Positions 24,267 to 62,614 of a DNA stretch of 64,000 bases are shown one piece after another (positions within the stretch are counted from its first letter, which is position 1; the number at the start of each line of letters is the position of its first letter). A program made the translations under genes and the position numbers. This DNA is from an uncultured Candidatus Saccharibacteria bacterium (lineage in GTDB: Bacteria > Patescibacteriota > Minisyncoccia > Portnoybacterales > UBA2143). The notes under the pieces were generated by a model. That model was not told the DNA's origin, did no database searches, and worked only from the letters and a program-made list of their open reading frames with translations. The stretch lies in assembly GCA_964596615.1 (NCBI GenBank), contig CAZQUN010000001.1, forward strand, positions 1,750-65,749, given 5' to 3'.

Positions 24267-26150
24267 TTATTCAACTGTAATTTTAATCTTCTTCTCTTGT
24301 TTTGGTATCCTATTAGCCCAAAACGGCCAAAAAGTGACCTTGGCCTTTTCAATCTCCGGCTGGCTGGTCAGATATTTCCTAACTTCAACTTCTTCTTTTC
24401 CGACTAAATTACTTTTAAGTTTATCCGTATCAATCTTAAAAGCCAAATCTTCCTCTATCTCAAGAGAAAAACTTACTTCGCCTTTTTCCCAGTCAATAAT
24501 TGGTTCCTGCCATTTAATCTTTTGGGTATCAGACAAAGGCCTTTTTTCTTCAGTAATCTGGGCAATTAAATTAAGGTCTATCAAATCTTTCAAATCCTCT
24601 TCCCTGTAAAGCAGAGCCCGGATAACCATATCAATTCCTAAATTAAATTTATCGGCCTGGTCATCTTCTTTGGCGGTAGAAGTAATATCGGCAATCTCTT
24701 CTTTTAGTCCGCCTTCCAATATCTTCAAATCACTTGGAATCTGTTCTTCCAGGGCCTGGCTAACTTCGCCCTTTAACTGTTCGATTAAAATCTTTTCAGC
24801 CTGTTCCAAATCTTCAGCTAGAACAACCTTAACCTTTTCAATTGAACCGCCGGACATTGATTCTTTCGATTTGCCGTAGAAACTGGCGAATTTGGGACCG
24901 CCTTTAAATCCAGGGATGGTGAAATCAGCCGGACCAATATTGTAATCATCTCCTGGCTGGTCAGCGATAACTTCAACATCAATACTGCTGGCAATTATTC
25001 TTCCTTCTTCAATTTTTGCTCCTGGAACGGTAATGGTTTTAGGTATTCTGAAAATCTTGCCATCAGGTGATTCAAAACGGGTGGTTGCGACTAAGGTCTG
25101 ATCACTCGAGCTGTACTCATTATAGACCGTGATGGTTCCTTTTGCTTTTTCATCTAATTGTTTTTCTCCTGTTGCCAGGAATTCTTGACTATTTGATTTG
25201 ACTACCTTGACCTCTTGAAGAGGAAGACGATTCAGAATTTCATCAATCCTTGAAATACTGACTGTTCCGATTAAAGATAAGTCAAAACTCTTTTTTTCAA
25301 CCTTAGGGGTAATGGTAATTTCAGTGCTGGGCAGGACCAGGTAAGTAACCGTTCCTGAAATAACAACGGCCAGGATAATGAAAAGAATAAAAATCTTTGA
25401 CCATTTTAATCTTCTTCCTTCGTGTTCAACTCTGACTGGTTCCATTCTTGGGGGAATAATATCTTCCTGCCTTGGCTGAGGTTCAATTCTTTCTTGGGGA
25501 ATCTTCTTCTTGGAAAGAAACTTTTCGCCTAAAATTCGGCGTCTGAAGAAATTAACTTTAACATCTTCCGGGTCAACAATATCCATTGATTTTTTCTTTG
25601 GCTTTTTCAGAGAAAAAACATCAATACTTTTGTTTTTCAGAGGAACAAATCTGTCTAAGCCAGAAGGAGATTTCTTCTGAACTAATTGAGTAACAACTTC
25701 ATCTTCTTCTTTATTCAACGAAGAATTAATCTTGTCTTTTTCCTTATCTGATTCCATTTCTTCAACCAAAAGACCAATCATATTTTCCTTATTCTTGCCT
25801 AGTCTTTCCTTTGGCGAAGTCAATGTTTTTACTTTTATTGCCTTGGGTTCTCTTTTTTTCTCTGTTGGTTTGGCCTGAGCCAGTTCAATTGGAAAATCAT
25901 TTTCTCTCCTAACCTTAAAACCAACATTCTCAGCCGCTTCTTTTTCCAAACTATCCGTAACAATCAAAGTTACGTCCTTGCCTAAAATATCTGCTTCTCG
26001 CTTGAGCAATTTCAAATTAATCGAACTCTGCCAGACCTGGGCCCCCCGGGGAATAACTAAACCAATCTCCTTTCCCTTATCCTGAGCGAGTCGGTCGATA
26101 ATGGAGACGATTTCCTCATTTGGTTCAATAAAAATGTTTTTTTGTTCCAT
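24267..26150 (-). CDS. Hypothetical bitopic membrane protein (627 aa) downstream of ftsA
   Basis: ~240-aa cytoplasmic N-region, a single TM (IFILFIILAVVISGTVTYLVL), and a ~360-aa extracytoplasmic C-region. No FtsZ motif (GGGTGTG absent). Confidence 0.5.
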   Translation of the reverse strand: MEQKNIFIEPNEEIVSIIDRLAQDKGKEIGLVIPRGAQVWQSSINLKLLKREADILGKDVTLIVTDSLEKEAAENVGFKVRRENDFPIELAQAKPTEKKREPKAIKVKTLTSPKERLGKNKENMIGLLVEEMESDKEKDKINSSLNKEEDEVVTQLVQKKSPSGLDRFVPLKNKSIDVFSLKKPKKKSMDIVDPEDVKVNFFRRRILGEKFLSKKKIPQERIEPQPRQEDIIPPRMEPVRVEHEGRRLKWSKIFILFIILAVVISGTVTYLVLPSTEITITPKVEKKSFDLSLIGTVSISRIDEILNRLPLQEVKVVKSNSQEFLATGEKQLDEKAKGTITVYNEYSSSDQTLVATTRFESPDGKIFRIPKTITVPGAKIEEGRIIASSIDVEVIADQPGDDYNIGPADFTIPGFKGGPKFASFYGKSKESMSGGSIEKVKVVLAEDLEQAEKILIEQLKGEVSQALEEQIPSDLKILEGGLKEEIADITSTAKEDDQADKFNLGIDMVIRALLYREEDLKDLIDLNLIAQITEEKRPLSDTQKIKWQEPIIDWEKGEVSFSLEIEEDLAFKIDTDKLKSNLVGKEEVEVRKYLTSQPEIEKAKVTFWPFWANRIPKQEKKIKITVE

Positions 26151-26152
26151 AA

Positions 26153-27424
26153 CTACTTATGCATTATTCTGACCATTCGCCGTAGAATCGGCGGCAGGAC
26201 CTTATCTTCTTCTGTAGCAATTTCTAAGGTTAAACTTGCCAAAGCCAGAGGAGTAACATCCTCTGGTCCATTCAAACTATTAGTTCGGTCAATAATATTC
26301 TCGATATGCCCCGGTTGGATAAAGCCAACCTGAGGGGACTGGGAAAAAGGAAACTTCTCCCACCATTGCCGAAGAACAGCTTCTTTTTTTAAAATATTCT
26401 TGACTCCGGGCAACAAACTTCCTCCCCCGCATAAAAGAATTGAAGAAGGAAAATATTCAGCCTGCTTAAAATCCTCTAAGATTAATTCTATTCCGTCAAA
26501 CCAGATTTCCATATCTCTTTTTAAAATTTCATTGATTTTTCTTCTGACACTCTGACTTAACTGGCGATAACCATAGCGAACCTTTATTTCCTCGGCCTCA
26601 TTCATGCCTAAACCAAGATTCTGACAAAGCCGTTTGGTAAATGTTTGTCCGGCTAAAGCAAAGCTCTTTATTCCATCAACCCTGTTCTGACGAACCAGGG
26701 CAACATCAGTTGTTCCTCCGCCAATATCAATGAAAATGGCGCCGGCGGTTGGATTAAATCCAGAACTCTTAGTTAAGGCATAAGGGTCAGCAACAACCGA
26801 GAGCAGATCCAAATTTAGTTTTGAGGCAATACTTTCCAATGCCTTCAAATGAACCAAAGGCGCGTAAACGCTAAAGGTATTTAAAAATATTTCTCCTCCT
26901 TCAAAACCCAGAGGATTAGTTACCGGATAGCCGTCAATCCTGATATCAGTTACCAAAGCATTAACCAATCTAATCTCAATTTCTGACTGACAGGTTTCGC
27001 AGGCCAAAACTTTCCGGGCTTTATCATAGGCCTTCCATTGGGCTTTTTGGATAATATTCTGGAGCTCAGATAAATCAATCTTTTTTTCCGGCTCTTCTCT
27101 TTGAGAGGAAAAGGTTGTTGTTGAGCCTTTAACGAATTCACCTGCTACTCCAATGACTGCCCGAGATGGCCTGATTCTGGCCATTTTCCCGGCTTCGTCA
27201 ATTGCCTTCTGGCAGGTCAAAGATACTCCGTCAATATTAGCAACTGCTCCAGCCAGCATATCGCCTGGCTGTTGCCTTGTCCGGGAAAATCCAACAACAA
27301 CACCTTTTTTCTTTTTCTCGTCGCCTAAAATATCTTCTTCTATTTTAAAAATTAAAACCTTAACAAACTCTGTTCCGATATCCAAAGCCAAGAGATAATC
27401 CTTTTTTGATTTTAATCTCCCCAT
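26153..27424 (-). CDS. ftsA: Cell-division actin-like ATPase FtsA
   Basis: LALDIGTEFVKV and IDIGGGTTDVALV phosphate motifs; strong collinearity with the FtsA 1C/2 subdomains. Confidence 0.75.
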   Translation of the reverse strand: MGRLKSKKDYLLALDIGTEFVKVLIFKIEEDILGDEKKKKGVVVGFSRTRQQPGDMLAGAVANIDGVSLTCQKAIDEAGKMARIRPSRAVIGVAGEFVKGSTTTFSSQREEPEKKIDLSELQNIIQKAQWKAYDKARKVLACETCQSEIEIRLVNALVTDIRIDGYPVTNPLGFEGGEIFLNTFSVYAPLVHLKALESIASKLNLDLLSVVADPYALTKSSGFNPTAGAIFIDIGGGTTDVALVRQNRVDGIKSFALAGQTFTKRLCQNLGLGMNEAEEIKVRYGYRQLSQSVRRKINEILKRDMEIWFDGIELILEDFKQAEYFPSSILLCGGGSLLPGVKNILKKEAVLRQWWEKFPFSQSPQVGFIQPGHIENIIDRTNSLNGPEDVTPLALASLTLEIATEEDKVLPPILRRMVRIMHK

Positions 27425-29253: not shown

Positions 29254-29511
29254 CTATTCTGATTTAATAAACCTATTATAAAGCCAGGCAAAAATCCATC
29301 CGCCAATAAAGCCATAGATAAAGCCCCAAACCAGACCAATAAAAGCGCCCATATAACTGATTGAGTAACCAAAATAGAATTGTTCTATGAGGGCTAATGT
29401 ATTGCCGCCATCCTTTAACATTACCCAGATAGTCATTATTAAAACTATCAACCCCCAAGTAATTCCAGAAGCCAGGGCAAAGGCCTTTTTGTCTAATTTC
29501 ATTTTTCTCAC
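29254..29511 (-). CDS. Small two-helix membrane protein
   Basis: 85 aa with two long hydrophobic segments. Confidence 0.45.
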   Translation of the reverse strand: MRKMKLDKKAFALASGITWGLIVLIMTIWVMLKDGGNTLALIEQFYFGYSISYMGAFIGLVWGFIYGFIGGWIFAWLYNRFIKSE

Positions 29512-29523
29512 CCCCCTTCTTTT

Positions 29524-31179
29524 TTAAGATTTTTCTTCTTTTGATTCCTGATCTGGTCCGATAACTTCCTTTAATTCCTCTCTTAATTCCCCGAGATTAA
29601 CTTCTTTTCTTTCTTTTTTAGGATGAAATGACTGAGCTTCTTGTTTTATTGCTTCTCCTAAAGAAATTTTTTCTTCTGGAGATTGAGCGGTTTTTGGTTC
29701 TTTGGTAATAATAGAAGAGTCTTTGTCTTCTTTTTCTTGTCTAACTTTTTCTAAACACTCCGGACAATAGACCGGTCTAACATTATCTGGTTCAAATTTA
29801 ACTTTTGTTTTTTTACTACACTCAGAACAGACCGCATCATGCAAGGGTTGCCTGGTTTGACTGGCTTTTTTTTCTGTTTCAATTACCTTGCTAACACCGC
29901 TCCATTTAGTAATCTTTTCTTCAACTTCTCTCTGTGAATTGGCATATCTCTCCCTTGAAACATTTACTATTTTCTCCCTCTGGTCAGTAGAGCCAATATC
30001 TATTGGCGGCAGGGTTTTGGCAGAGAAAGGCCGACGATTAACACCATCAATCATTAATCGCAGATAGACACAATAGTTTTCCAGATTAACCAGGTCCTGG
30101 ATATTGAATTCCGGAGAAAATTCTTTCTCCAAGAATTCAGCGTCAGCGGCGCCAACCCGAAACGAAATTAAAGTGCCAACATTGCCAAAAACCGCATCCC
30201 TAACCTTGGTTGTTTGTTCATCTACCAGTTGGCCAATATATTGATGGGCAATAACCAGATTAAGACGATATTTCCTGGCTTCGGATAGAACTCCGGCAAA
30301 AGAATCAGTAGCAAAATTCTGAAACTCGTCAACATACAAATAGAAATCCTTTCTTTGATCTTCCGGAATACGAACTCTTTCCATGGCGGCTAATTGAATT
30401 TTTGTAATGAGCATTGCTCCTAAAAGAGCAGAATTATCTTCTCCGACTCTTCCCTTGGAAACATTGACCAAAAGAATTTTCTTGTCGTCCATAATTTCAG
30501 GAATCCTGATTGTGCTCTTTGACTGGCCAACAATATTACGAATCAGTCCGGTTGAGAGGAATTGCCCAACTTTGTTCTGAATTGGAGCAATGGCTTCATT
30601 CCTGAATTGGTCCCGCCAACTGGCATATTCATTAATCCAAAAGGCCCGGACAACCGGATCTTTAACATTATCAATAATTTTCTGGCGGTAATCCTTGTCA
30701 ACCAGGATCCTTAAAATCCCCAAAAGAGTTGTTCCCTCGGTGTCCAAAAGAGCCAAGACACAGTTATTTAAAATATATTCCATTCGGGCTGACCAGACAT
30801 TAGCCCACATTTTAGTAAAAATACCCATTAGATCAGAAGCGACCAGGTGTTTGTATTTCGGGTCAACAACTTCCAAAACATTAAAGCCAATTGGATATTC
30901 AGTGTCAGCCGGGTTGAAATAGACGACGTCGTTGACCCGATGAGAAGGAATTTTATCAACAACTTCTTCAACAAATTCTCCGTGCGGGTCAACAATACAA
31001 ACCCCATGGCCGTTCTGAATATCCTGAAGGGCCATATTTTTAAGAAGAACGGTTTTACCAACACCGGTCTTACCAATAATATACATGTGCTGGCGTCGGT
31101 CATTCTTCTTAATGCCAAAAGTCTTATCTTCTCCTCGAAAATTAGTCTTGGCAAAAAATGTAATATTATTCTCTTCCAT
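29524..31179 (-). CDS. FtsK/HerA/TraD(VirD4)-superfamily P-loop ATPase with a C-terminal Zn ribbon
   Basis: Walker A IIGKTGVGKT, Walker B LYVDEFQNF, and a VIAHQ sensor-like motif. Has no TM helices of its own. C-terminal CSEC...CPEC ribbon and a charged low-complexity tail. Confidence 0.6.
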   Translation of the reverse strand: MEENNITFFAKTNFRGEDKTFGIKKNDRRQHMYIIGKTGVGKTVLLKNMALQDIQNGHGVCIVDPHGEFVEEVVDKIPSHRVNDVVYFNPADTEYPIGFNVLEVVDPKYKHLVASDLMGIFTKMWANVWSARMEYILNNCVLALLDTEGTTLLGILRILVDKDYRQKIIDNVKDPVVRAFWINEYASWRDQFRNEAIAPIQNKVGQFLSTGLIRNIVGQSKSTIRIPEIMDDKKILLVNVSKGRVGEDNSALLGAMLITKIQLAAMERVRIPEDQRKDFYLYVDEFQNFATDSFAGVLSEARKYRLNLVIAHQYIGQLVDEQTTKVRDAVFGNVGTLISFRVGAADAEFLEKEFSPEFNIQDLVNLENYCVYLRLMIDGVNRRPFSAKTLPPIDIGSTDQREKIVNVSRERYANSQREVEEKITKWSGVSKVIETEKKASQTRQPLHDAVCSECSKKTKVKFEPDNVRPVYCPECLEKVRQEKEDKDSSIITKEPKTAQSPEEKISLGEAIKQEAQSFHPKKERKEVNLGELREELKEVIGPDQESKEEKS

Positions 31180-31180
31180 A

Positions 31181-32560
31181 TTATTCTACAGGTAAATCAA
31201 TTGGCGCTTCACGCTTTCTAGCTTCAACTTTGGGCGCTAACGGCGCTTTAACTGTTTCAATTGGGAAATGATAAATTGTTGCTAATTCTTCAACATTAAA
31301 TGTAAAGGGTTTACTTCTCATAAAAATCCATTTTAGAATCGGCAAACGCTCAAAAAGATGGGGTCTTAGATAAGGGATATTATCCGAATGTTGGACAAAG
31401 TCCCTTTTTTTGTAATCAGCAAAAACTCTTCTGGCCCGATAACTTTCCCTTGGTCCTTTTATTTGAAGCCGGTAATCAATAAAATCGGTTGAGATTTTTG
31501 CGCTGGGCTTAAATCCATTAAGACCCTGGATAGTGAATTGCTTAAAAGAACCAATAACCGTATTGACATTAGGTCTTTGATAGACATCCCTGTCAGCCAG
31601 GTAAATAAATCGGATAATTGTATCAAAGCCAAGTTTAGAAATATTTCTTTCTATGGCGCTAATAGTCTCTTGTTCTCCTTTGGTTGTTGTCCACAAAAAT
31701 GGGGTATCCGTCTTTCCATCCTCCCCGGCTGGAGATTCAAGCGGTTTGCCGGTAACCAATTGATGACCAACCGACTTGGAAGCGTCTTTCCAGGCGACGG
31801 CCTCTTTTTTTACCTCGCCCTGATTTTTTTCTACCTTACGGCCAACTAGTTTATCCCTTAATTCTTCCCCTTTCTTTTGCCAAGTATCGTCAACCGGCCG
31901 GACTAATGTTTGAATCCAAATTTGTTCCCTTGGTCCCATTTTAGACATAATCTCCATTAAAGAAGCGATTGGGTCAATCCGTTGCTCTTCTGAACTAGCT
32001 TCCTTTTCAAATTCAAAGTAGGTTCTAATCGGATAGGCATCTTCTTTGAGTAAAATAAATTCCGTTCCCCAAAGAGTGCGATTTTCATCTGGAAGATCAT
32101 CCGGAACAGAATCAACGTAATCTGCTACCTGGCTAATTTCTGCTTCGGGATACTGGGCGTAAATATTGGACTCAATTAAATTACGAAGTCCAGAGACAGT
32201 TCTGATATAGAAATGGATTTCTCCGCCCAAACTGACCATTTCCATACTAAACCACCTTTGAACTTCTCCTAAAATATTCCTTTCCCACCAGTTTTTCCCG
32301 CCCTGAGCGCCATGTAAGGAACAAAAAAACTGCTCCATAGCCTGAGCGGTCTTTTTAATGTCTTGGGGCGGGATGACTTCTAAAAGAATCCAATCCATTT
32401 CATTGATATAGAGATTTCTTTTCCATCTCAGCCAAAAACCTTTGGTTAAATAAAATAGAAGCAAAGGAAGCCAAATCCACCAAAAGGATAACAAAAACCC
32501 TCCAATAAACAACAGGACACTAATAAGAAGTGAAAAAATTTGAATCAAAAAAGATAGCAT
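31181..32560 (-). CDS. Membrane protein partner of the TraD-like ATPase
   Basis: Two N-terminal TM helices (IFSLLISVLLFIGGFLLSFWWIWLPLLLFYL) and a ~400-aa soluble domain. The stop sits 1 nt before the ATPase start. Confidence 0.5.
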   Translation of the reverse strand: MLSFLIQIFSLLISVLLFIGGFLLSFWWIWLPLLLFYLTKGFWLRWKRNLYINEMDWILLEVIPPQDIKKTAQAMEQFFCSLHGAQGGKNWWERNILGEVQRWFSMEMVSLGGEIHFYIRTVSGLRNLIESNIYAQYPEAEISQVADYVDSVPDDLPDENRTLWGTEFILLKEDAYPIRTYFEFEKEASSEEQRIDPIASLMEIMSKMGPREQIWIQTLVRPVDDTWQKKGEELRDKLVGRKVEKNQGEVKKEAVAWKDASKSVGHQLVTGKPLESPAGEDGKTDTPFLWTTTKGEQETISAIERNISKLGFDTIIRFIYLADRDVYQRPNVNTVIGSFKQFTIQGLNGFKPSAKISTDFIDYRLQIKGPRESYRARRVFADYKKRDFVQHSDNIPYLRPHLFERLPILKWIFMRSKPFTFNVEELATIYHFPIETVKAPLAPKVEARKREAPIDLPVE

Positions 32561-32634: not shown

Positions 32635-33693
32635 CTATTTTCCAATTAAAACATATTTGCCATCTGAACTCTTGGCAAAATATTTCTTGTTCTGAAGATT
32701 AATTAAAACAGTATTGGTTTTAGCCATTCGGGATTCCAAAACTTTTCCAAGAATTTCTTCCTTGGCCATTGGACCATTTTCTTTTAGGGTCTGGATAATG
32801 ACATCCTTGATTGTCCCGGGCTGATAACCCCATTCTTTAAGAGCGTAAGTCCCCCGGCCAACCAGAATAAAGCGGGGATCTTTAATTAACTCATTATGAA
32901 CGGTCTGGGATTGAGCCAGATTAGAACCAAGATTAGCAACATTAATTAAATCAGAAACTTCTCTGAAATGCAGAGGGCGACCCTGTTCTTTAAGAACGAT
33001 GTAGGCTTTGTCTTTAGCGCCTCGAGGATTAATTTCTGGCCACTTGGAAAGGCCGAAGTAGCCAAAATTATTCTGGCTGATTTGTTTGGTCGCATCAAGA
33101 TAGGAATCCAAAGTCCTCTTATTAATCTTCTTATTCAATTCTTTGGAATAATCCAGAATCTGACTTGAAGAAATTACCTTTTCTCCGTTCTCAATCTTTT
33201 TAACCAAAAAATTAACTAATTTATCAGCCTGATTCAAGGCATCTTTTGAATTAGCCCAAAGAGGATAAAATTTATCTGACTCAACAAAGCGCTGGTAGGG
33301 CTGGCCCAGAGTCAAAGCAAAGTAGACCGCTCCTCTGGCCGGATGAGAAGAATCAGTTCCTGTTAAAGAGGAAAGTAATCTTTCTTCCCTGGCAACTCCG
33401 CCTTCCTGGTTTAAGAAATTATCAACAAAAGAAAAACTTGGCTTTAAAGCATTAATTGATTCTGATCTTTTCAAATCCGAAAAAGCGACTTCTTCTATTT
33501 GACGAACCCGCTCTCTGGTAATGCCATATTTTTGCCCAATCTCTTCTAAGGTCTTTCTTTGTCCGTCTTTAAGACCAAAGCGAAGGGAAATAATATCGCG
33601 TGTTCTTTGGTTTGAAACATTTTTAAGCGCTTCAGAAACCATTTTTTCGTAACTTGTCAGAGTTGTTTTACTCATCACAAAAAAGTTTAACAC
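32635..33693 (-). CDS. Sigma-70 region-4-like HTH protein with an uncharacterised C-terminal domain
   Basis: N-terminal TLEEIGQKYGITRERVRQIEEVAF matches the sigma70 region 4.2 HTH. The remaining ~250 aa has no region 2 or region 3 motifs. Confidence 0.55.
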   Translation of the reverse strand: MLNFFVMSKTTLTSYEKMVSEALKNVSNQRTRDIISLRFGLKDGQRKTLEEIGQKYGITRERVRQIEEVAFSDLKRSESINALKPSFSFVDNFLNQEGGVAREERLLSSLTGTDSSHPARGAVYFALTLGQPYQRFVESDKFYPLWANSKDALNQADKLVNFLVKKIENGEKVISSSQILDYSKELNKKINKRTLDSYLDATKQISQNNFGYFGLSKWPEINPRGAKDKAYIVLKEQGRPLHFREVSDLINVANLGSNLAQSQTVHNELIKDPRFILVGRGTYALKEWGYQPGTIKDVIIQTLKENGPMAKEEILGKVLESRMAKTNTVLINLQNKKYFAKSSDGKYVLIGK

Positions 33694-41962: not shown

Positions 41963-42817
41963 TTAAAATCCCAAATACTCAATTTCTTCTTCTAATTCTA
42001 TTTGATATTTTTCTTTGATTGTTTCCTTGATTAAATCAATCAATTTAATTACATCTTTGGCCTTGGCGTTGTTAGAGTTGATAATGAAATTAGCGTGTTT
42101 CTGAGATACAACTGCTCCGCCAATCTTTTTACCTTTCAGGCCAGCTTGATCAATGAGGCGGCCAGCTGGAACTGTGTTGTCCCAACAAACAATATCTCTA
42201 GGAATTAACTTCTCTGCTTTTGCTTCGGATTCCGCAATTTTTGTATTTTTGAAAATACACCCCGGGCAAAATTCCCCAATCGGCTGAGTCTGTTTTCTTT
42301 TTTTAATAATTTCCTTAATTAATTTTCTGCTTTCTTTTTGCTTTCCTTTTTCTAATTCTAATTCAACTGAGAGAATAATATTATCTTTTTTTTCTGTCTT
42401 TTTAACTAAATTCTTCATTTCTCCGCCAAAGCAAGAAGCATTAACTTTAACCGCCCCGCCGATTGTTCCCGGAATGCCAATTGCCCATTCCAATCCGGCC
42501 AAACTATTCTCAACTGAAAAATTAACTAAATCACTTAATCTTGCTCCGGCTTCTGATATAATCCTATTGCCCTTAATTGAGTAATTTCTGTTTTCGGTTT
42601 TAATGACTAATCCATTAAATCCCTTATCGCTGATTAAAAGATTACTCCCGCCGCCGAGAATAAAAAAAGGCAGGTTTTCTTTTTTAGCAAAATCAACTGC
42701 CTTAATCAAATCCTGACTGTTTTTAATAACAAAGAAATATTTAGCTGGCCCGCCAATCCTAAAAGTCGTATAGGGCGCTAGCAAAACATTCTTTTGGAAA
42801 TTATTGATACATAACAT
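41963..42817 (-). CDS. murB: UDP-N-acetylenolpyruvoylglucosamine reductase
   Basis: FAD-binding-4 N-domain (APYTTFRIGGPA...ILGGGSNLL) and MurB C-domain. The start is set at MLCINNF; the ORF-track start would overlap the upstream gene by ~60 nt. Confidence 0.85.
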   Translation of the reverse strand: MLCINNFQKNVLLAPYTTFRIGGPAKYFFVIKNSQDLIKAVDFAKKENLPFFILGGGSNLLISDKGFNGLVIKTENRNYSIKGNRIISEAGARLSDLVNFSVENSLAGLEWAIGIPGTIGGAVKVNASCFGGEMKNLVKKTEKKDNIILSVELELEKGKQKESRKLIKEIIKKRKQTQPIGEFCPGCIFKNTKIAESEAKAEKLIPRDIVCWDNTVPAGRLIDQAGLKGKKIGGAVVSQKHANFIINSNNAKAKDVIKLIDLIKETIKEKYQIELEEEIEYLGF

Positions 42818-44585
42818 CGGCGCCAGTGGTGTAATAGCCAACTTCCCAATCATTGACAACATAGACCATATCCCATTTATGGCCAGTCAGAGCAAATTCT
42901 TCAGCAGTCATATTAAGCCAATGCTTTGTTCCATCAGCGTTTAATTCGTAGACCTTAGTACCACTTACTCCTCTAATCATCCATGATTCCGTATATTGAT
43001 TCAAAACAGACTGGTCAATATCAATAATATCTTCCCATTTCAAATGGCCGTAGCGATTGAAAAGTTCGGCCGTTTGTATCCATCTTTTGTAATTGCCTTT
43101 GACAATATAGACCTTGTAGCCGCCTTTGGCTCTGATTAGACTGCCGTCTGGGTAAATAACCGAAGGATTGTTTTCGGAAGAACCTTCTTCTGGAGAATCT
43201 GATTCTTCCGGAACCAAATCATTTGAAATACTTGAGGCGGTAAAAGAGAAAAGAGTAAAAGGATCACTGCTCTTAAAATCACTTTCTTTGAACTGGTTAA
43301 TTGGAATAAGAGTAACGGTTTTGTCTGAGCTGGTGAAGTTGGGGATATAGGCTATTCCCTTTTTATCTTCCAAGGAAAGAGTTTTAACCGTCGTGTTACT
43401 ATACTGGTCAGTAATAATATATGGAACGCTGAAATTACTCCGGTACTGGTCAGCCGAAGCATCAAATTCCAGTTTCAAGGCATCGTTTTCAGTTGGAACA
43501 GTTCCATTCTGCCTGAACCGATACCAGCGAGGCGACCAATCTTTAACCGAACTGCTCCGAGAAACAATCAGACCGGGAAAGCCGCTGTAACTGGCAGAAT
43601 AGTTAACTTTCAATCTTTGAGGGGTCAGGTTTTTATTTAGATAGCAATACTGGCCGCTGTCAATTTGGCAATTATTCAGATAATTAGCTATTGCCCAGTC
43701 AGTAAAAACATCAGAAAATGTTTTTGAATAACCCAAGCTCGACAGGGCAAAATTAATGCTTTCTATCCCAGTCTTGCCGCTCAAAATCGTTCGGGTTAAA
43801 ACTTCTTGGCCGTAATGGTCAACTAGATAGTGTACAAACAGGTTAATTGCTCCGTAATCAGGAACATTGTTTTTCCATTCAGCCAAGGGCTCTGTTGGAT
43901 AATCTAGAAAAGTGTCAACCCGGTCAGCCAAATAACTGTTGTTATAACTCTCACTATACCCACAGACTGTTGGCGCATATTCAGACCGGGCTTCATTCAG
44001 CCAAATATCATCTTCAATACCATGAACAATTGTTTTCTGATAAAAACTGATTAAGTGTTGGAATTCATGGGCAATAAGGGCTTTGTTTTTTGAGCTAAAA
44101 ACATTAACAGCATTGAAATAGATCATTTCCCTTTCATTGGAACTGGCAATTTCCGAACGAGAATACTCATCATAGGTGTTAAAATAGCCACCAGCGTCAC
44201 TAACTAATTCAGTCGCCAAAATGGTGATCCGACTGTCATCATCAATGCCCGGATTCCACTCTGAACCATAGACCGCCCTCAATTTAGGGTAAATAATATT
44301 GTCGAATTCATCAGCCAGAATTTCAAGTTCTTCCCTGATAGCATTTTTGTATGTTCCATTTAATTTCTGGTAATAGTCGTCTTCTAAATAAAAGTAGGCG
44401 TGTTCGCCGATAGCCTTCATGGTCGCCGTAATCTGGGCTCGACCGGAAACATCATAGGTCGAATCAACAAAAAAAGTTTTCTGATCATTAAGATTATCAG
44501 CCAGAGCCAGAGAAGGAAAAACAAAAAATCCTCCTAGAATAAAGAGACCGAAAACTCCAAATTTTAAGTTAATTCTGTAACTCAT
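42801..44585 (-). CDS. Secreted HEXXH zinc-metallopeptidase-like protein with a C-terminal beta-rich domain
   Basis: Signal peptide (FGVFGLFILGGFFVFPSLALA), HEXXH motif (LIAHEFQHLIS), 594 aa. Confidence 0.5.
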   Translation of the reverse strand: MSYRINLKFGVFGLFILGGFFVFPSLALADNLNDQKTFFVDSTYDVSGRAQITATMKAIGEHAYFYLEDDYYQKLNGTYKNAIREELEILADEFDNIIYPKLRAVYGSEWNPGIDDDSRITILATELVSDAGGYFNTYDEYSRSEIASSNEREMIYFNAVNVFSSKNKALIAHEFQHLISFYQKTIVHGIEDDIWLNEARSEYAPTVCGYSESYNNSYLADRVDTFLDYPTEPLAEWKNNVPDYGAINLFVHYLVDHYGQEVLTRTILSGKTGIESINFALSSLGYSKTFSDVFTDWAIANYLNNCQIDSGQYCYLNKNLTPQRLKVNYSASYSGFPGLIVSRSSSVKDWSPRWYRFRQNGTVPTENDALKLEFDASADQYRSNFSVPYIITDQYSNTTVKTLSLEDKKGIAYIPNFTSSDKTVTLIPINQFKESDFKSSDPFTLFSFTASSISNDLVPEESDSPEEGSSENNPSVIYPDGSLIRAKGGYKVYIVKGNYKRWIQTAELFNRYGHLKWEDIIDIDQSVLNQYTESWMIRGVSGTKVYELNADGTKHWLNMTAEEFALTGHKWDMVYVVNDWEVGYYTTGADVMYQ

Positions 44586-56501: not shown

Positions 56502-57451
56502 AAATCCTAAAAGAATTTTCTCGGCACTGGTATATCATTATCGGCATTCTAATCTTTCTCTATATTGTTTTCTACAAGATAAATTTAAGGGAAGTTTTTA
56601 GCATACTCGCTCAGGCCAATCCATATTCCATCCTCTTGGCTGCCTTTTTTACGATTTTAATGATTACCCTTCAGCCAATTAGGTGGAATTACTTAAAAAG
56701 AATTCAGGATATTAAGTATTCTCATAAGGATTCTTTTTTAATTTATAACGCTGGATTTTTCTTTTCATCAATTACTCCTGGAAGAGTTGGTGACTTTATT
56801 AAAGTTTTTTATTTGAAAAAAGATGGTCATTCAATCGGAAAGTCAATGGTTAGTATTACGATCGATAGAGTGGCTGATGTTCTTTTTCTTTTTCTCCTCG
56901 GATATTTTAGTCTCCTTTTCTTCTTTCCCTCTTTTCGAAAAGAAATTATTCTTCTAACCTTTCTTTCTCTAATTATCTTGGGAATCTTTGTCTTTTTCAG
57001 AAAAAACGGGCTTTTAAAAATCCTTTTTAACAGGGTTTCCAAGATAATAATTCCATCTAAATATCAAAAATCCTGGCATTTGAATTACCAGGATTTCATT
57101 AATGGCCTAAAGGAGTATCGATTCAAAAATTATTTTATCCTTCTTCTTTTCACCATTCTTAACTGGTTTTTCTATTATACCTCGATGTATTTTCTGGCTA
57201 AAAGCATTAATTTGGACAATATTCCTCTTTTTTACTTCGTCGGCTCGGTTGCCTTAGCTGCTTTAGCAGTCCTGATTCCAATTTCAATTTTTGGACTAGG
57301 AACCAGAGATGCAACTCTTCTGTTTTTCTTTTCTGCTGTTGGCATCAGTCCGGAGAAAACAATTGGCTTTTCAACTCTCTTTCTTTTGATTCTCCTGATG
57401 GCAACCCTAATTGGTTTTCTGGCCTGGTTGAAAAAACCATTAAAGTTTTAA
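56498..57451 (+). CDS. Polytopic membrane protein, flippase-like (UPF0104 / lysyl-PG-synthase TM-region family)
   Basis: 317 aa, ~8 TM helices, PGRVGDF motif. This family is usually found next to GT2 genes. Confidence 0.5.
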   Translation: MKILKEFSRHWYIIIGILIFLYIVFYKINLREVFSILAQANPYSILLAAFFTILMITLQPIRWNYLKRIQDIKYSHKDSFLIYNAGFFFSSITPGRVGDFIKVFYLKKDGHSIGKSMVSITIDRVADVLFLFLLGYFSLLFFFPSFRKEIILLTFLSLIILGIFVFFRKNGLLKILFNRVSKIIIPSKYQKSWHLNYQDFINGLKEYRFKNYFILLLFTILNWFFYYTSMYFLAKSINLDNIPLFYFVGSVALAALAVLIPISIFGLGTRDATLLFFFSAVGISPEKTIGFSTLFLLILLMATLIGFLAWLKKPLKF

Positions 57452-58504
57452 GAAATTCTTTATCAAAATCGGCCAATTAGAAGGATTGTTGACTAAACTG
57501 CTTTGAATTGCGTTCTCAAAAGTACAAGCGCATTTCTTATCCTTAATATATTTTAAAGTTTTCCTAGCCCTTTCGGTTGAAAGGACTTTTTTAATATCAT
57601 AATTAAAATCTTTTAAATTGCCGAAATCAGCATCGAGAATTTCACAAGGCCTGACCAGGCCATCTTCTGAAATGACGACCATTTCCTTTCCAGCCGAACA
57701 AACGTGTTTTCTTTTTCCTGTTCTAAGAAATCCTTCAATAATTTCCCTGGTTGCCATCTTATTCGCCGCCATAAGCCGGGAAAAAGCAAAGCCAGAACTA
57801 AAATTTTCTTTTTCCTTATTAACCATATCAGCAATCTGATGATAATCTTTATCAGAAAGATTACTAGTCCCGACCTCTCTAACACTTCCTCTTGCCCAGG
57901 AAAAATTAAAATCAGCCAAAGGCATTTCATTTCTGACAAAATTCATTACTTCCTTAACTTTGGTGTAGTTTTTGGTTGAAACCGTCATGTTAATCAGTAT
58001 TTCAAAGTCCTTAACGTTCTTTTTTAATTCAACCAGATTTCTGTAATTAACAACTACTTTTTCAAAACAGCCTTCCACTCTTCTGATCTTATTATGATCT
58101 TTGCCCAGGCCATCAAGAGAGAGACAAAGCTTTAAATATGGGTGCTTGGTTGTTTTAAGGATTTCTTCAACCATATCCTTTACCTTATCGACTAAAATAG
58201 AGTTAGTTGGAATGCTGATAAATTGAACTTTATTATTTCTGTCAAAAATTCGGGCGATTTCGGGCAAATCATTTCTTAAGGTCGGCTCGCCGCCAGTTAA
58301 AGTAACATATTCCAATTGGCCGAAAGATTTGGAAATCCTTTCAATTTCATCCAAAGATAATTCCTTATTAATAGCGGCCTGATCAATTTCTTTCCAATAA
58401 AAGCACATTGCGCAACGAGCATTGCACCGGGCAGTGGTAAAGAAAATGATGTAGGTTGGTGTTTTAGAGAATAAGTTTCTAAAACCCTTTAAGTATTTAT
58501 TCAT
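57440..58504 (-). CDS. Radical SAM protein with a C-terminal SPASM/twitch-type domain (second copy, opposite strand)
   Basis: CNARCAMC near the N-terminus; C-terminal CSAGKEMVVISEDGLVRPC...CACTFENA Cys cluster; 354 aa. Its 3' end overlaps the convergent gene by 12 nt. Confidence 0.8.
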   Translation of the reverse strand: MNKYLKGFRNLFSKTPTYIIFFTTARCNARCAMCFYWKEIDQAAINKELSLDEIERISKSFGQLEYVTLTGGEPTLRNDLPEIARIFDRNNKVQFISIPTNSILVDKVKDMVEEILKTTKHPYLKLCLSLDGLGKDHNKIRRVEGCFEKVVVNYRNLVELKKNVKDFEILINMTVSTKNYTKVKEVMNFVRNEMPLADFNFSWARGSVREVGTSNLSDKDYHQIADMVNKEKENFSSGFAFSRLMAANKMATREIIEGFLRTGKRKHVCSAGKEMVVISEDGLVRPCEILDADFGNLKDFNYDIKKVLSTERARKTLKYIKDKKCACTFENAIQSSLVNNPSNWPILIKNFLKL

Positions 58505-59468
58505 CTTTTTTGAAAGGATAGAAGATTAATGAAAATCCTGCTCCCAAGGCAGTCAAAAAGCAAAAATATAAATCGAGAATAAAGAAAGGGAAAATTAAGT
58601 GAATTCTTCTTTCCTTAATTAGAAACCAATAAAATCCGTAGTTATACAAAAGATAAACAAGAAAAAATGAAAGAAGAAGATAGAAAAAAGAAGGAAGAAA
58701 AACCAAAACAAGGATTAAAGGAAAAATCATTGCCCCGATTAAAGTTTTAATCCCTCTTTCTTTGGTTGAATAAACCGGATCAAATTTCTTTCTTTTGATA
58801 AAAAGACGGATCCATTGCCAGCTTCTTTTTAGTGTTTTCTTTGTCAATTGTCTGAAGGTCTCAAAATGATGACCGACCAAAATATTCCTGGCGATATATA
58901 TTTTAATATTTTCCTTGGCCAAACGATAGCCAAATTCAAAATCCTCAACATCAGCCCCTTTGTATTTTTGATCAAAATATCCGAATCTATCAAAGATATT
59001 TCTTTTAACGGCTGAACGCTCGGTAGTAAAAGATGTCTGGTATTCTCCTGGCTGACTCCAAAGATAATATTTGTAATAGGCGATATACAATGGAGTTAAT
59101 CCTTTGTTCAGAGGAGTCTTATCTTTGACCATAATAATTCCATCGATTTCCGGTTTTTCCAAGAAAATTTCATTTAATTCCGAAAGGGCATTATTCTCTT
59201 TAAAAGTGACATCCGAGTCAACAAAGACAACGATTTCTCCTTGGGCTTTTTTAATGCCGACGTTTCTGGCTCCGGCTGGACCCAAATTCTTTTCCAAAAC
59301 AATCTGTTTAGCATTGTATTGATTAATAATTTCTTCGGTTTTATCAGTTGAAGCATCGTTGATTAGAATAACCTCAAAATCAGAAAAGTTCTGCCTCTTC
59401 ACAGAATCTAAACACTTTCCTATTGTTTTTTCAGCATTGTAAGCCGGGATAACAATTGAGAATTTCAT
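58497..59468 (-). CDS. GT2 glycosyltransferase with a C-terminal TM anchor
   Basis: FSIVIPAYNAEKTI, ILINDASTD, FVDSDV (DxD) and a C-terminal hydrophobic domain. Confidence 0.75.
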   Translation of the reverse strand: MKFSIVIPAYNAEKTIGKCLDSVKRQNFSDFEVILINDASTDKTEEIINQYNAKQIVLEKNLGPAGARNVGIKKAQGEIVVFVDSDVTFKENNALSELNEIFLEKPEIDGIIMVKDKTPLNKGLTPLYIAYYKYYLWSQPGEYQTSFTTERSAVKRNIFDRFGYFDQKYKGADVEDFEFGYRLAKENIKIYIARNILVGHHFETFRQLTKKTLKRSWQWIRLFIKRKKFDPVYSTKERGIKTLIGAMIFPLILVLVFLPSFFYLLLSFFLVYLLYNYGFYWFLIKERRIHLIFPFFILDLYFCFLTALGAGFSLIFYPFKKDE

Positions 59469-59469
59469 A

Positions 59470-61188
59470 TTACCTGATTAGATTTAAAAACCAGCTTTTA
59501 GTTTGAGAGGTTTCCGGCAAGGAGACCTCAATATTATCGGAAGCAATATTTTCAACCCGAGAATTATTTAAAATCTCTTTGGTTAATTCAGGAGAGTAGC
59601 CAAGAACATATTTAACATTGAACTTATCAAAAGCAGGCTGAAGATTTTTCTGCTCAATTAGCTTTTCTATTGTTTTGGGCGCGAAAATGACAATTGATTT
59701 TTCAGTCTGGTAAGCTATTTTCTCCCACTGAGTCCCTGGTATACCAGGGCTGCTTAAGGCAATAATTTCTTCATCTTTAATCTTAAATTTCTTTATTTCC
59801 CTAACATGGGTATCAGCAGCCAAATATTCTTCGTTGTCATAGATTCTCCCCCACAAGACATGATTACTTAGAACCAGATTGTACAAAACCAACAGAATCA
59901 ACAGGGCTCCCATTATTCTCTTTCCATTATCTCCCATTCGAAAATACTGGGATAGAATATTGATCAAGAATAATAAGCCGAGAGCAATGACCAAAGCAAT
60001 CCCCCAACTAAAATCCATCAAATGATTGCGGGTTCCCATGTAGACATAGGAAGCAAAAAACAGAAAGAAGACGATCCAAAAAACAAAAAACCAATATAAA
60101 TAACTGTGTTCTCTTTTCAAAAATAAAAATCCAAAGATAAAAAGCAGAAAAATAAATGGTCCGCCAATATCCTCAATGGCAAAGAAACGAAAACTATGCC
60201 TTAAGAAATTAACTGTTCCAACCTTTAATCTTCCCACCAACCCCGGACTTTTAAAAGCCTGGGTGGCAGATACTTTGATTGCTTCTATCTCTTCGAACAT
60301 TCCCAAGTCAGGAGAAACGACACTTAGCCTTAGATCGTTTAGAAAGTTCTCTCGGTCAAAATGATAGGTATAAGGGTCTGGGAAAATATGATGATAGAGA
60401 AAAAAATCGAAAAAATCAGTTCTTTCTTCAATATCGGCCTTAAGAGGTTGCGCATAATAATCTTTGCCAGAAAATATCTCTGGCAGCCAGAAAAGAGAAA
60501 CAATGATAATAAATGGAATAAAAGTATAAATTAGGCACTTTTTTTCTTTTCTGAACAACAGATAAAGAAAAAAGGCAGGGGCAGCTGTGAACATTGCCTC
60601 CTTGGCTATGCCAGTTAGAGCTAAAAAAATACCTGATAGAAAGATTAAAAAATATCTGTATTTAAATTCTGATTTCAGTCCGATAAAGAATAATAGTGAG
60701 AATAAAGAAAAGAAAAGAAGGCAAATTTCATAAGTTCCGAAATTATAAACAATATAATACCAATTAAAAGGCAAAAGAACATAGACAAGAGAAAAAAGAG
60801 CGGCTATTTTAAAATCAAAAAGATAATAAACTACAATAGTGAAAATAATTAAAGTCAAAACCAGAATAGCTATTGAAACAAAAATCAAATTATTGTATTC
60901 GGGTAAACCAGTAATCCTAAAAATCTGAGCCAGGACAACAGAAGTCAGCTTATTACCAACAATAGAATTCTGCGCCTGTTCTTTGACTAAAGAGGGCGCC
61001 AGAATAATATTAAGACTATTTTCTGTTCCATAGATGCCTTCTTGAAAGTAATTCCGAGCCAATAATAAAGAACCGCGCGAAACCGTAGCTGAATAACCCT
61101 TGAACATTGTTGGGGCATACCAGACCGAAACAGCAAAAACAGCAACCCCAGCCAAAAGAATAATGAATTTTAATTTTTCTTTAGACAT
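59470..61188 (-). CDS. Large polytopic membrane protein, GT-C-fold glycosyltransferase-like (ArnT/PMT/oligosaccharyltransferase-like); tentative
   Basis: 572 aa, at least 11 predicted TM helices and a C-terminal soluble domain. Sits beside polyprenyl-P-sugar synthases. No diagnostic motif confirmed. Confidence 0.4.
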   Translation of the reverse strand: MSKEKLKFIILLAGVAVFAVSVWYAPTMFKGYSATVSRGSLLLARNYFQEGIYGTENSLNIILAPSLVKEQAQNSIVGNKLTSVVLAQIFRITGLPEYNNLIFVSIAILVLTLIIFTIVVYYLFDFKIAALFSLVYVLLPFNWYYIVYNFGTYEICLLFFSLFSLLFFIGLKSEFKYRYFLIFLSGIFLALTGIAKEAMFTAAPAFFLYLLFRKEKKCLIYTFIPFIIIVSLFWLPEIFSGKDYYAQPLKADIEERTDFFDFFLYHHIFPDPYTYHFDRENFLNDLRLSVVSPDLGMFEEIEAIKVSATQAFKSPGLVGRLKVGTVNFLRHSFRFFAIEDIGGPFIFLLFIFGFLFLKREHSYLYWFFVFWIVFFLFFASYVYMGTRNHLMDFSWGIALVIALGLLFLINILSQYFRMGDNGKRIMGALLILLVLYNLVLSNHVLWGRIYDNEEYLAADTHVREIKKFKIKDEEIIALSSPGIPGTQWEKIAYQTEKSIVIFAPKTIEKLIEQKNLQPAFDKFNVKYVLGYSPELTKEILNNSRVENIASDNIEVSLPETSQTKSWFLNLIR

Positions 61189-62614
61189 TTTTTTTCTTTT
61201 TTCTTAAACTAACCTGATTACTAAAGAGCCAATAACTGAAAGCATCTTTAATTGAAGGTCGATAAAACCAAAAGGTCTGCCAGGCAAAAAACGAAGAATG
61301 AACAGTTTCAAAAAATATATTTCTTTTAAGCTTTATCAGCCGTCTAACAATTGGTTCTAGAAAATATATCTTTGAAAGGAGAGGAATAAAGAAAAGTAAA
61401 TTTTCCAATTCCTCTTTATTCTCTAGGTTAAAAGGAGAATAATATTGGCTATTTAAATCCATCTGATTTGGATCATAATCTTCATCCAGATATCCCTTTT
61501 CCTTAGCGTAATCTAAAAGATGAGTTCCTGGAAAGGGCTGGGCAAATCCAATCGCAACAAGATCTGCCTTAATCTTACTATTAATCTGAGCAGTCTTAAA
61601 TCCATCATCAATTGACTCTCCCGGCAAGCACATCATATTAAAGGTTTTTAATTTCAATCCCTTGCTTTTAATAATCTTGGAGGCTCTGATAATATCATCA
61701 TCCGAAACATTTTTTTTCAAAATCTCATTTCGCAAACGCTCGTTGCCGGTTTCAATACCCATAGTTACCCCCCTGCAACCAGCGCTTTTTAAAAGATCAA
61801 CAGTGCTCTCATCAATTAAATCAGCTCTTACCTGGGCAATAAACTCTAGATTAATTTTCTCTTTGTACTTCCGAGAGAATTCTTTTAGCCAATCTTTCTT
61901 CAGAATAAAGGTATCATCTGAGAAATATATTCTCTTCAGACCATAATTATCTCTAACCATTGATATTTCCTCTATCAAACTATCAACGCTTCGTAATCTG
62001 GTGTATTTGCCTTTTCCAGCATAAAGATTCTTGTAAGCCTGGTTAACACAGAAAATGCAATCAAAAGGGCATCCCCGGCCGGCAATAAAATTCTTAACAA
62101 TGCTTTTTCTAAGATAATCATACTTTTTGTAATAGAGATCCCTATCAGGCAAAGGCAAGGCATTCAAATCTTCAATTAATGGCCTTAATGGATTTTTAAT
62201 AATTCTATCTCCTTCTTTTATCCAAATGTTTTCTATTCTTTTAATATCTTCTTTTCTTTCCATTTTTTCCACTAATTCCAAGAGAGCCTCTTCTCCTTCA
62301 CCGATACAAATCATATCAATTCCGTCCTGATTTAAAACATTAGGAGAAAAAGTCGGATGAGGGCCACCCATAATAATTGGGATATCAAATCTTTTTTTAA
62401 TTATTCTGGCCTTTTCCAAGGCCCAGTTATGAATTGTTGTTGTACAGGAAAATCCTATCAAATCGGGCTTAATCTGCCCTATTTCTTCAATCAAATCTTG
62501 ATTGTTTGAAGGAACAATAAGGGAGGCCTCGAAGCCAGCCTTTTTCAAAACACTTGAAAGATGCATTAGCCCAAAAGAGACAAACCCCGAATAACTGACA
62601 AAGAGAATTTTCAT
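61181..62614 (-). CDS. Cobalamin-binding radical SAM enzyme (class B) paralog 4
   Basis: B12-binding domain (KILFVSYSG...LIGFSC...IIMGGPHPT), then CPFDCIFC. Start set at MKILFV (62614). Confidence 0.8.
   Translation of the reverse strand: MKILFVSYSGFVSFGLMHLSSVLKKAGFEASLIVPSNNQDLIEEIGQIKPDLIGFSCTTTIHNWALEKARIIKKRFDIPIIMGGPHPTFSPNVLNQDGIDMICIGEGEEALLELVEKMERKEDIKRIENIWIKEGDRIIKNPLRPLIEDLNALPLPDRDLYYKKYDYLRKSIVKNFIAGRGCPFDCIFCVNQAYKNLYAGKGKYTRLRSVDSLIEEISMVRDNYGLKRIYFSDDTFILKKDWLKEFSRKYKEKINLEFIAQVRADLIDESTVDLLKSAGCRGVTMGIETGNERLRNEILKKNVSDDDIIRASKIIKSKGLKLKTFNMMCLPGESIDDGFKTAQINSKIKADLVAIGFAQPFPGTHLLDYAKEKGYLDEDYDPNQMDLNSQYYSPFNLENKEELENLLFFIPLLSKIYFLEPIVRRLIKLKRNIFFETVHSSFFAWQTFWFYRPSIKDAFSYWLFSNQVSLRKKKKNV

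Follow-up and report, generated by a model that had tools for sequence, protein, structure and literature searches.

A 64,000-nucleotide stretch of DNA from an uncultured Candidatus Saccharibacteria bacterium (assembly GCA_964596615.1, contig CAZQUN010000001.1, positions 1,750 to 65,749; this whole stretch is called the window below) carries a gene for a TraD/VirD4-like ATPase directly after a gene for a membrane protein, raising the question of what a coupling-type motor without a membrane anchor of its own does there and whether its neighbor supplies the missing half. The pair consists of ATPase1, a VirD4/TrwB-type protein of 551 amino acids (aa) without a transmembrane helix (29524..31179, from the list of open reading frames and Pfam profiles; hereafter the ATPase), and a DUF8128 (PF26449) partner of 459 aa (31181..32560, from the same list and from homologues with precomputed PF26449). 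These genes, like all window features given below, lie on the minus strand. We consider it probable that the pair is a gene-split, relocated, zinc-finger-bearing type IV coupling protein (T4CP) of the DUF8128 type, that is, two halves of one machine serving a chromosomal type IV secretion system (T4SS). The pair represents an already known type of machine in divided form, not a new device, and this explanation is the most likely one because fused orthologues of the two proteins sit in a Patescibacteria T4SS locus.

Four Pfam profiles matched the ATPase above their cut-offs: PF10412 (TrwB_AAD_bind; 65.0 bits against 20.5), PF02534 (T4SS-DNA_transf; 32.0 bits against 20.1), PF12696 (TraG-D_C; 28.3 bits against 22), and PF01935 (DUF87; 35.8 bits against 23.2). 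The PF10412 match runs unbroken over residues 23-344 (30148..31113), equivalent to profile positions 9-312 of 387, and includes Walker A (GKTGVGKT, residues 36-43, 31051-31074) and Walker B (LYVDEFQNF, residues 281-289, 30313-30339), which are about 240 aa apart, the interval in which T4CPs carry an inserted all-alpha domain; T4CP profiles cover residues 23-347, the whole motor. Profiles for VirB4, FtsK, HerA_C, and CedD reached the P-loop region only and stayed below their cut-offs, with 20.8 against 27.5 for the VirB4-type ATPase domain AAA_10, 15.5 against 643 for TIGR00929 (P-loop only), 13.2 against 24 for FtsK/SpoIIIE PF01580 (residues 15-49 only), and 30.6 bits against 600 for CedD NF053655 (residues 19-92 only). 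The NCBIfam T4CP cut-offs were not reached either (SXT_TraD, 54.3 against 366; conju_CD1115, 44.9 against 250; TraD_Ftype, 33.7 against 521). By sequence, the closest PDB entries were TrwB (1e9r) and DotL (6sz9), and the name 'type IV secretion system DNA-binding domain-containing protein' is given by NCBI to the ATPase as well as to its homologues. As judged from these profiles, the ATPase is of the VirD4/TrwB/TraD type and does not belong to the KAP or another AAA family, so that the TraD/VirD4-like assignment first made from the sequence alone (the original prediction) was borne out.

Hydropathy analysis (Kyte-Doolittle) revealed no hydrophobic segment in the ATPase, in agreement with the reported lack of N-terminal transmembrane helices. 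The C-terminal Cys4 motif, which like the two Walker motifs had been recognized in the original prediction and was found again here, is a CxxC-x17-CxxC treble-clef zinc finger (PF23477 / TIGR04272) at residues 451-475 (29755..29829), and its exact 17-residue spacing was present in 118 of 118 full-length ATPase orthologues. The remainder of the protein is a variable, by composition strongly charged C-terminal tail of 72 residues (15 K/R and 19 D/E; 29527..29742). Two orthologues were of unusual build: P0385 (788 aa) continues at its C-terminus into a pilin-like domain of the prepilin-type N_methyl kind, unless a stop codon was missed, and P0382 (765 aa) has two CxxC-x17-CxxC fingers.

The partner and ATPase genes meet at TAA-T-ATG (31177..31183, read from the sequence), with a 1-nt spacer as the fission point. 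This spacing is compatible with the translational coupling that had been claimed for the two genes, but is not proof of it. A frameshift artifact does not explain the split. The same arrangement was seen in another 56 species-level genomes, in which the apparent gaps between the tblastn matches of partner and ATPase were 3-320 nt. Across 71 species-level Patescibacteria loci with at least 1.5 kb of sequence downstream of DUF8128, the ATPase lay no more than 400 nt away in 56 loci and no more than 1 kb away in a further two (58/71), at partner identities as low as 33%; the expected co-occurrence of the two genes was thus found, in addition to the colinear fusions described below. A promoter and terminator scan was uninformative, because its counts were no better than those from shuffled sequence.

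Proteins in which both halves form a single polypeptide connect the pair with T4SS loci. The two window proteins match separate halves of the phage family profile phrog_5156, and gp156 of Bacillus phage G (825 aa) was matched by the DUF8128 profile at an hhalign probability of 98.4 and, in its C-terminal half, by the ATPase. When gp156 served as the query of a database search, many fused proteins with lengths of 725-1142 aa were recovered, and at least 78 of those listed carried both PF26449 and PF10412 and came from Berkelbacteria, Falkowbacteria, Gottesmanbacteria, 'Saccharibacteria', and other Patescibacteria groups. The fused proteins are colinear with the pair, and the fusion joint falls exactly at the gene boundary; in P0419, for instance, partner residues 16-459 align to residues 7-382 and ATPase residues 1-445 to residues 381-824. 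An EELAxxxHxP-type motif ahead of the P-loop is common to both arrangements. The pair differs from the fused forms in being encoded by two genes, in carrying the zinc finger (absent in 13 of 13 fused forms checked), and in its location, as some of the fused forms lie within T4SS loci. The 728-aa fused forms and gp156 have no N-terminal transmembrane hairpin. Because colinear fused orthologues exist, the two genes can be regarded as one functional unit, and linkage and colinear fusions together indicate that the split is real, lies exactly at the domain boundary, and is lineage-specific. The evidence supports the loss of the whole N-terminal domain from the motor polypeptide, and not just of an anchor. 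The split described in the original prediction therefore stands, but the part that was split off is a whole DUF8128 family protein with a domain of about 400 aa.

Three of the 728-aa fused orthologues are encoded divergently beside a Patescibacteria T4SS locus that adjoins dnaA-dnaN, where the T4SS genes comprised PrgI, TraC-like, and VirB4 genes, an M23 peptidase gene (two of the three), and T4SS_pilin arrays (two loci). On a conjugative plasmid of Embleya (Actinomycetota), an 812-aa T4CP is clustered with PrgI, VirB4-like, Replic_Relax, and NlpC/P60 genes and is arranged as a transmembrane segment, a DUF8128-like domain (hhalign E value of 7.9e-5, with an ELAALAHLP motif), and a T4CP motor. 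According to a recent survey (Quinonero-Coronel et al. 2025, PMC12102498), VirB4 occurs in 2,417 of 3,035 Patescibacteria genomes, a chromosomal T4SS is usual, and the Patescibacteria T4SS descends from the monoderm MPF-FATA class. With fused orthologues in T4SS loci and chromosomal T4SSs common in the group, the suggestion in the original prediction that the pair might work by itself in DNA uptake or host interaction found no support.

Many relatives encode, past the zinc-finger ATPase, a second T4CP-like ATPase of 468-486 aa, which has no zinc finger and shares 42-46% identity with ATPase1; versions of it from different lineages are 68-84% identical to one another. It is absent from the window, and phmmer detected no second T4SS-type ATPase paralogue in these 64 kb. 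The fused proteins are nearer to ATPase1 than to this paralogue. Many relatives also have, after the zinc-finger ATPase, between one and three genes for soluble, Cys-rich proteins that are paralogues of each other, measure about 490-590 aa, and bear a CxxC...CxxC finger at either end; the window does not encode such proteins. Loci with such extra genes include L001 (13650-20140), L090 (8665-13725), L089 (8899-12158), and L088 (4490-6947). The large proteins adjoining the paralogous ATPase in L001 were considered as DUF8128 paralogues and rejected.

The partner was assigned to PF26449 indirectly, through its homologues: precomputed PF26449 was present on 119 of the 120 listed (42-84% identity) and on the gene called in L001, and no match was obtained for the partner itself in local copies of Pfam, NCBIfam, and PADLOC. 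A profile search recovered 3252 cluster representatives of the DUF8128 family, with relatives in at least 577 species-level genomes, nearly all labelled Patescibacteria. Hydropathy showed a single long hydrophobic stretch (residues 1-39), which AlphaFold modeled as helices 2-25 and 27-54; the resulting N-terminal transmembrane hairpin (residues 2-54, 32399..32557) is followed by the basic stretch KGFWLRWKRNLY. By the positive-inside rule, the partner would have an N-in/C-in topology, with both termini and the large domain in the cytoplasm. That domain, a predicted alpha/beta fold (residues 55-459, 31184..32398), includes directly ahead of the C-terminal tail the conserved motif EELATIYHFP (31262..31291), which was identified by alignment and is present in 240 of 264 family members; its H431 and P433 were invariant in 150 sequences. 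The fused orthologues have this motif 40-70 residues before the P-loop, and it aligns to phage G gp156 and the Embleya T4CP. The two N-terminal helices and the large soluble domain described in the original prediction were therefore recovered.

The AlphaFold 2 model of the partner, built from a 150-sequence alignment (predicted local distance difference test score, 92.8; predicted template modeling [TM] score, 0.88), replaced a poor earlier model from 18 sequences, for which the former score was 63. In a Foldseek search of the PDB, the top 13 matches of this model were all TrwK/VirB4 of the R388 T4SS, with E values of 7e-5 to 3e-3 and probabilities of 0.96-1.00, followed by a next match at 0.05. 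The TM-scores were only 0.26-0.34 at a root mean square deviation of about 12 A, so that the similarity is local and not that of a rigid body. In BFVD, the model matched two proteins of phage G, namely, gp156 (3.8e-18) and gp155 (1.7e-5), the latter being VirB4-like with its P-loop near residue 345. We read these as matches to the VirB4 N-terminal domain, because no other RecA-type ATPase was among them, because the N-terminal domain of TrwK, which spans residues 15-400 (PMC9259494), has roughly the size required, and because gp155 was also matched. The predicted cytoplasmic domain of the partner, of about 400 aa, thus probably resembles the N-terminal domain of VirB4. Sequence comparisons of the DUF8128 profile gave no match among all PDB sequences at E values up to 10, nor to pSK41 TrsD and TrsE or to the Patescibacteria TraC-like protein and VirB4, the latter two comparisons being weak negatives with single sequences as hhalign templates.

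Classical T4CPs such as TrwB (R388), VirD4, and TraD belong to the same P-loop motor family as the ATPase, with which they share a full-length PF10412 match, and they form membrane-anchored cytoplasmic rings, as the pair presumably does. They differ in having a short N-terminal transmembrane domain in the same polypeptide, where in the pair the anchor is a protein of its own that additionally contains a domain of about 400 aa; moreover, the ATPase scores far under the NCBIfam equivalog cut-offs, and relaxase or T4SS genes do not lie near the pair. In the mechanism that we infer, the two proteins would interact physically, the conserved C-terminal region of DUF8128 docking on the N-terminus of the ATPase and so restoring the fused protein. 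The motor is presumed to be hexameric by homology, the stoichiometry of the complex being likewise conjectural. DUF8128 would anchor this motor ring at the membrane, and its VirB4-like domain may dock the motor on the inner-membrane platform of a T4SS. The complex would thereby act as substrate receptor and motor, for DNA or protein, in a chromosomal Patescibacteria-type T4SS presumably encoded elsewhere in this genome. C-terminal extensions of other T4CPs act as substrate or adaptor receptors, and the zinc finger and charged tail could do the same here.

Several observations weigh against such a role in a T4SS. No T4SS, relaxase, or mobile-element genes were found in the 64-kb window, as the original prediction had stated, and the pair lies within a deeply conserved housekeeping block, SecD-SecF-sigHARE-DUF8128-ATPase (sigHARE denotes a predicted DNA-binding protein described below). 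The numerous ATPase orthologues are strongly conserved (60-78% identity among the best 120 matches, or 61-78% with an identical entry set aside). In 13 of the 71 loci DUF8128 was not followed by the ATPase, and in all eight of the ATPase-less loci scanned it was followed by YceG/MltG. The likeness of DUF8128 to the VirB4 N-terminal domain comes from Foldseek alone, at low TM-scores and with no sequence signal. The zinc finger and the invariant helix-turn-helix neighbor, both gained by the split lineage, could mark a changed role. Finally, PMC12102498 counts 5,713 VirD4-type T4CP homologues in 2,918 Patescibacteria genomes, only 148 of them near virB4; among these homologues the ATPase is almost certainly included, and it resembles the orphan T4CPs of that study in being chromosomal, widespread, and far from virB4. 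The same source reports that in Southlakia epibionticum the T4CP homologue is non-essential while other T4SS genes are essential, for which reason its authors raise possible exaptation.

The best-surviving alternative, to which we give a minor but real probability, is accordingly that of an exapted, T4SS-independent DNA translocase, a membrane-anchored ring that would pump or tether DNA alone or with another channel. Its roles could possibly include DNA uptake, export, or segregation, by analogy with CedB/CedD or FtsK; FtsK is present in Saccharibacteria TM7x. A T4SS-independent role in DNA handling is a serious rival because exaptation of Patescibacteria T4CPs has been raised (PMC12102498), because the pair lies in a housekeeping block without nearby T4SS genes, because sigHARE is linked to it, and because the zinc finger is invariant in, and confined to, the split lineage. 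A precedent exists in the crenarchaeal CedB/CedD, which combine a transmembrane segment, a VirB4-N-terminal-domain-like domain, and an FtsK/HerA-superfamily ATPase in chromosomal DNA import and would thus resemble the pair, itself chromosomal. However, the Ced ATPases are HerA/VirB4-like, unlike the T4CP motor of the pair, no CedA-like channel gene lies near the pair, and, as given above, the FtsK and CedD profiles scored far under their cut-offs on the ATPase. The embedding of fused orthologues in T4SS loci likewise argues against exaptation.

The sigHARE evidence can be read in more than one way. This 352-aa protein (32635..33693, Pfam) combines Sigma70 region 4 (Sigma70_r4, residues 28-75) with a HARE-HTH domain (residues 227-288), and its gene immediately preceded DUF8128 in 73 of 75 loci of both synteny types (with and without the ATPase), including loci where both flanks differ, which favors the T4SS-independent role. 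It was absent next to the fused DUF8128-T4CP genes in the loci examined, and therefore its adjacency may reflect synteny within the lineage or nothing more than regulation. The protein could bind DNA as a partner or third component of the pair, regulate the operon, or be a mere syntenic neighbor. The second synteny type, leucyl-tRNA synthetase-sigHARE-DUF8128-YceG/MltG with no ATPase within 6 kb, was seen in L062, L064, L068, L070, L074, L077, L079, and L083. Some of the leucyl-tRNA synthetases in these loci carry extra domains, namely, an inserted DUF559 (endonuclease-like) domain in L064 (1450-4095) and a NUDIX domain after the editing domain in L070 (1399-4329) and L077 (1398-4232).

A bolder version, which we regard as speculative and rather unlikely, joins the two lines of thought: DUF8128 and the VirD4-type motor would form a distinct, ancient T4SS ATPase branch linking the VirB4 and VirD4 architectures through a VirB4-type N-terminal domain on a coupling-protein motor, which in Paceibacteria-type lineages would have become a split, zinc-fingered, sigHARE-partnered, and T4SS-uncoupled core chromosomal DNA translocase. 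If true, the branch would be common to Patescibacteria, actinobacterial conjugative elements, and Bacillus phages, and the uncoupled translocase could, for example, import host DNA in nucleotide-auxotrophic episymbionts.

It is improbable, in our judgment, that the pair is a functional analogue of VirB4, an assembly or pilus-biogenesis ATPase and not a substrate receptor. This explanation would account for the finding that all Foldseek matches with E values under 0.01 were VirB4 chains and for the match to the VirB4-like gp155. It would also fit the R388 structure, in which the two-transmembrane-helix VirB3 wraps the N-terminal domain of VirB4 (PMC9259494), so that in VirB3 and VirB4 (TrwM/TrwK), as in the pair, an ATPase of the FtsK/HerA superfamily is preceded by a two-helix membrane element and by an N-terminal domain about 400 aa long. 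The likeness is structural only, however, with low TM-scores and no sequence signal. A VirB4-like assembly role is unlikely because the motor is of the T4CP type, with AAA_10 and TIGR00929 under their cut-offs, and because the loci of the fused orthologues already hold a separate VirB4 and a TraC-like gene.

A phage-derived or anti-phage defense module, such as a MADS mad8-like system or a prophage remnant, would be suggested by a PADLOC mad8 match to the ATPase (4.7e-15), the phrog_5156 match, a holin_4-like gene directly downstream, and the fused homologue of temperate phage D6E, but we hold it to be very improbable, as there are no other defense or phage genes nearby, the partner, sigHARE, and holin-like proteins had no MADS match in PADLOC, vertical conservation and synteny characterize the family across at least 577 species genomes, matches amounted to a single weak, partial one in IMG/VR, a single marginal one in the plasmid collection, and none for the partner in phage GenBank records, the holin-like gene occurs in two closest loci only, and neither a patchy, island-like spread with mad genes nor excision or prophage boundaries were observed. 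A prophage or defense origin of the pair was rejected on the basis of the housekeeping neighbors and the near-absence from phage collections. Among the phages themselves, the VirB4-like ATPase gp155 of phage G adjoins the fused DUF8128-T4CP gp156 (L084, 1196-5338), and ORF23 of D6E (L087, 3804-6062) lies between lysin and integrase genes; the proteins of both phages are mis-annotated as MsbA-like.

We therefore return to the split coupling protein as the preferred explanation. Orphan Patescibacteria T4CP homologues and the DUF8128 family are already on record, and T4SS genes are reported to be essential when cultivated Saccharibacteria grow epibiotically, the many T4CP homologues of Patescibacteria being left as unexplained orphans that were possibly exapted (PMC12102498). 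The accessible text of that account describes no DUF8128 module, split or fused forms, zinc finger, or conserved neighbors, and the literature searched contained no mention of DUF8128 or PF26449. As far as the searchable literature shows, there is no earlier record of a DUF8128-T4CP link, of the predicted VirB4-like fold in DUF8128, of split versus fused forms and the T4SS setting in which they occur, or of the added zinc finger and sigHARE. The orphan T4CPs thereby gain an anatomy, an N-terminal DUF8128 module with a predicted VirB4-like fold that is fused or split depending on the class, and a Pfam domain of unknown function gains a proposed role. The arrangement suggests how a motor without transmembrane helices stays at the membrane, bears on the kinship of VirB4 and VirD4 ATPases, and offers a concrete protein pair with which to ask whether such a coupling protein still serves a T4SS or handles DNA independently of one.

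The window as a whole has a G+C content of about 38%, and profile scans identified housekeeping flanks around the pair, comprising FtsA, alanyl-tRNA synthetase, SecA/SecD/SecF, UDG, a MurA-like protein, ribosomal proteins, glycosyltransferases, and radical-SAM enzymes. The holin_4-like gene (29254-29511) begins 12 nt past the ATPase stop codon in these housekeeping surroundings, has a strong Shine-Dalgarno sequence, and encodes an 85-aa membrane protein that matches the NCBIfam 'bacteriophage holin' family holin_4 at 77.5 bits against a cut-off of 70. It was ruled out as a component of the system, being seen in the two closest related loci only (L008 and L012). Farther along, at 24267-27424, the gene after FtsA encodes a membrane protein of 627 aa that spans the membrane once and weakly matches a GlxA beta-barrel, and the same FtsA/GlxA-like pair also comes after the ATPase cluster in L090. 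A 594-aa protein without a Pfam match (42801-44585) is conserved in L001 and is 38% identical to a 570-aa protein of a Gribaldobacteria locus (L089, 5287-6999), which has an N-terminal hydrophobic segment and is encoded directly upstream of the ATPase. Lastly, a cluster at 57440-63909 encodes three radical-SAM proteins, of which one has a B12-binding domain and another a SPASM domain, along with a glycosyltransferase of family 2 and a protein of 572 aa that had no Pfam match.

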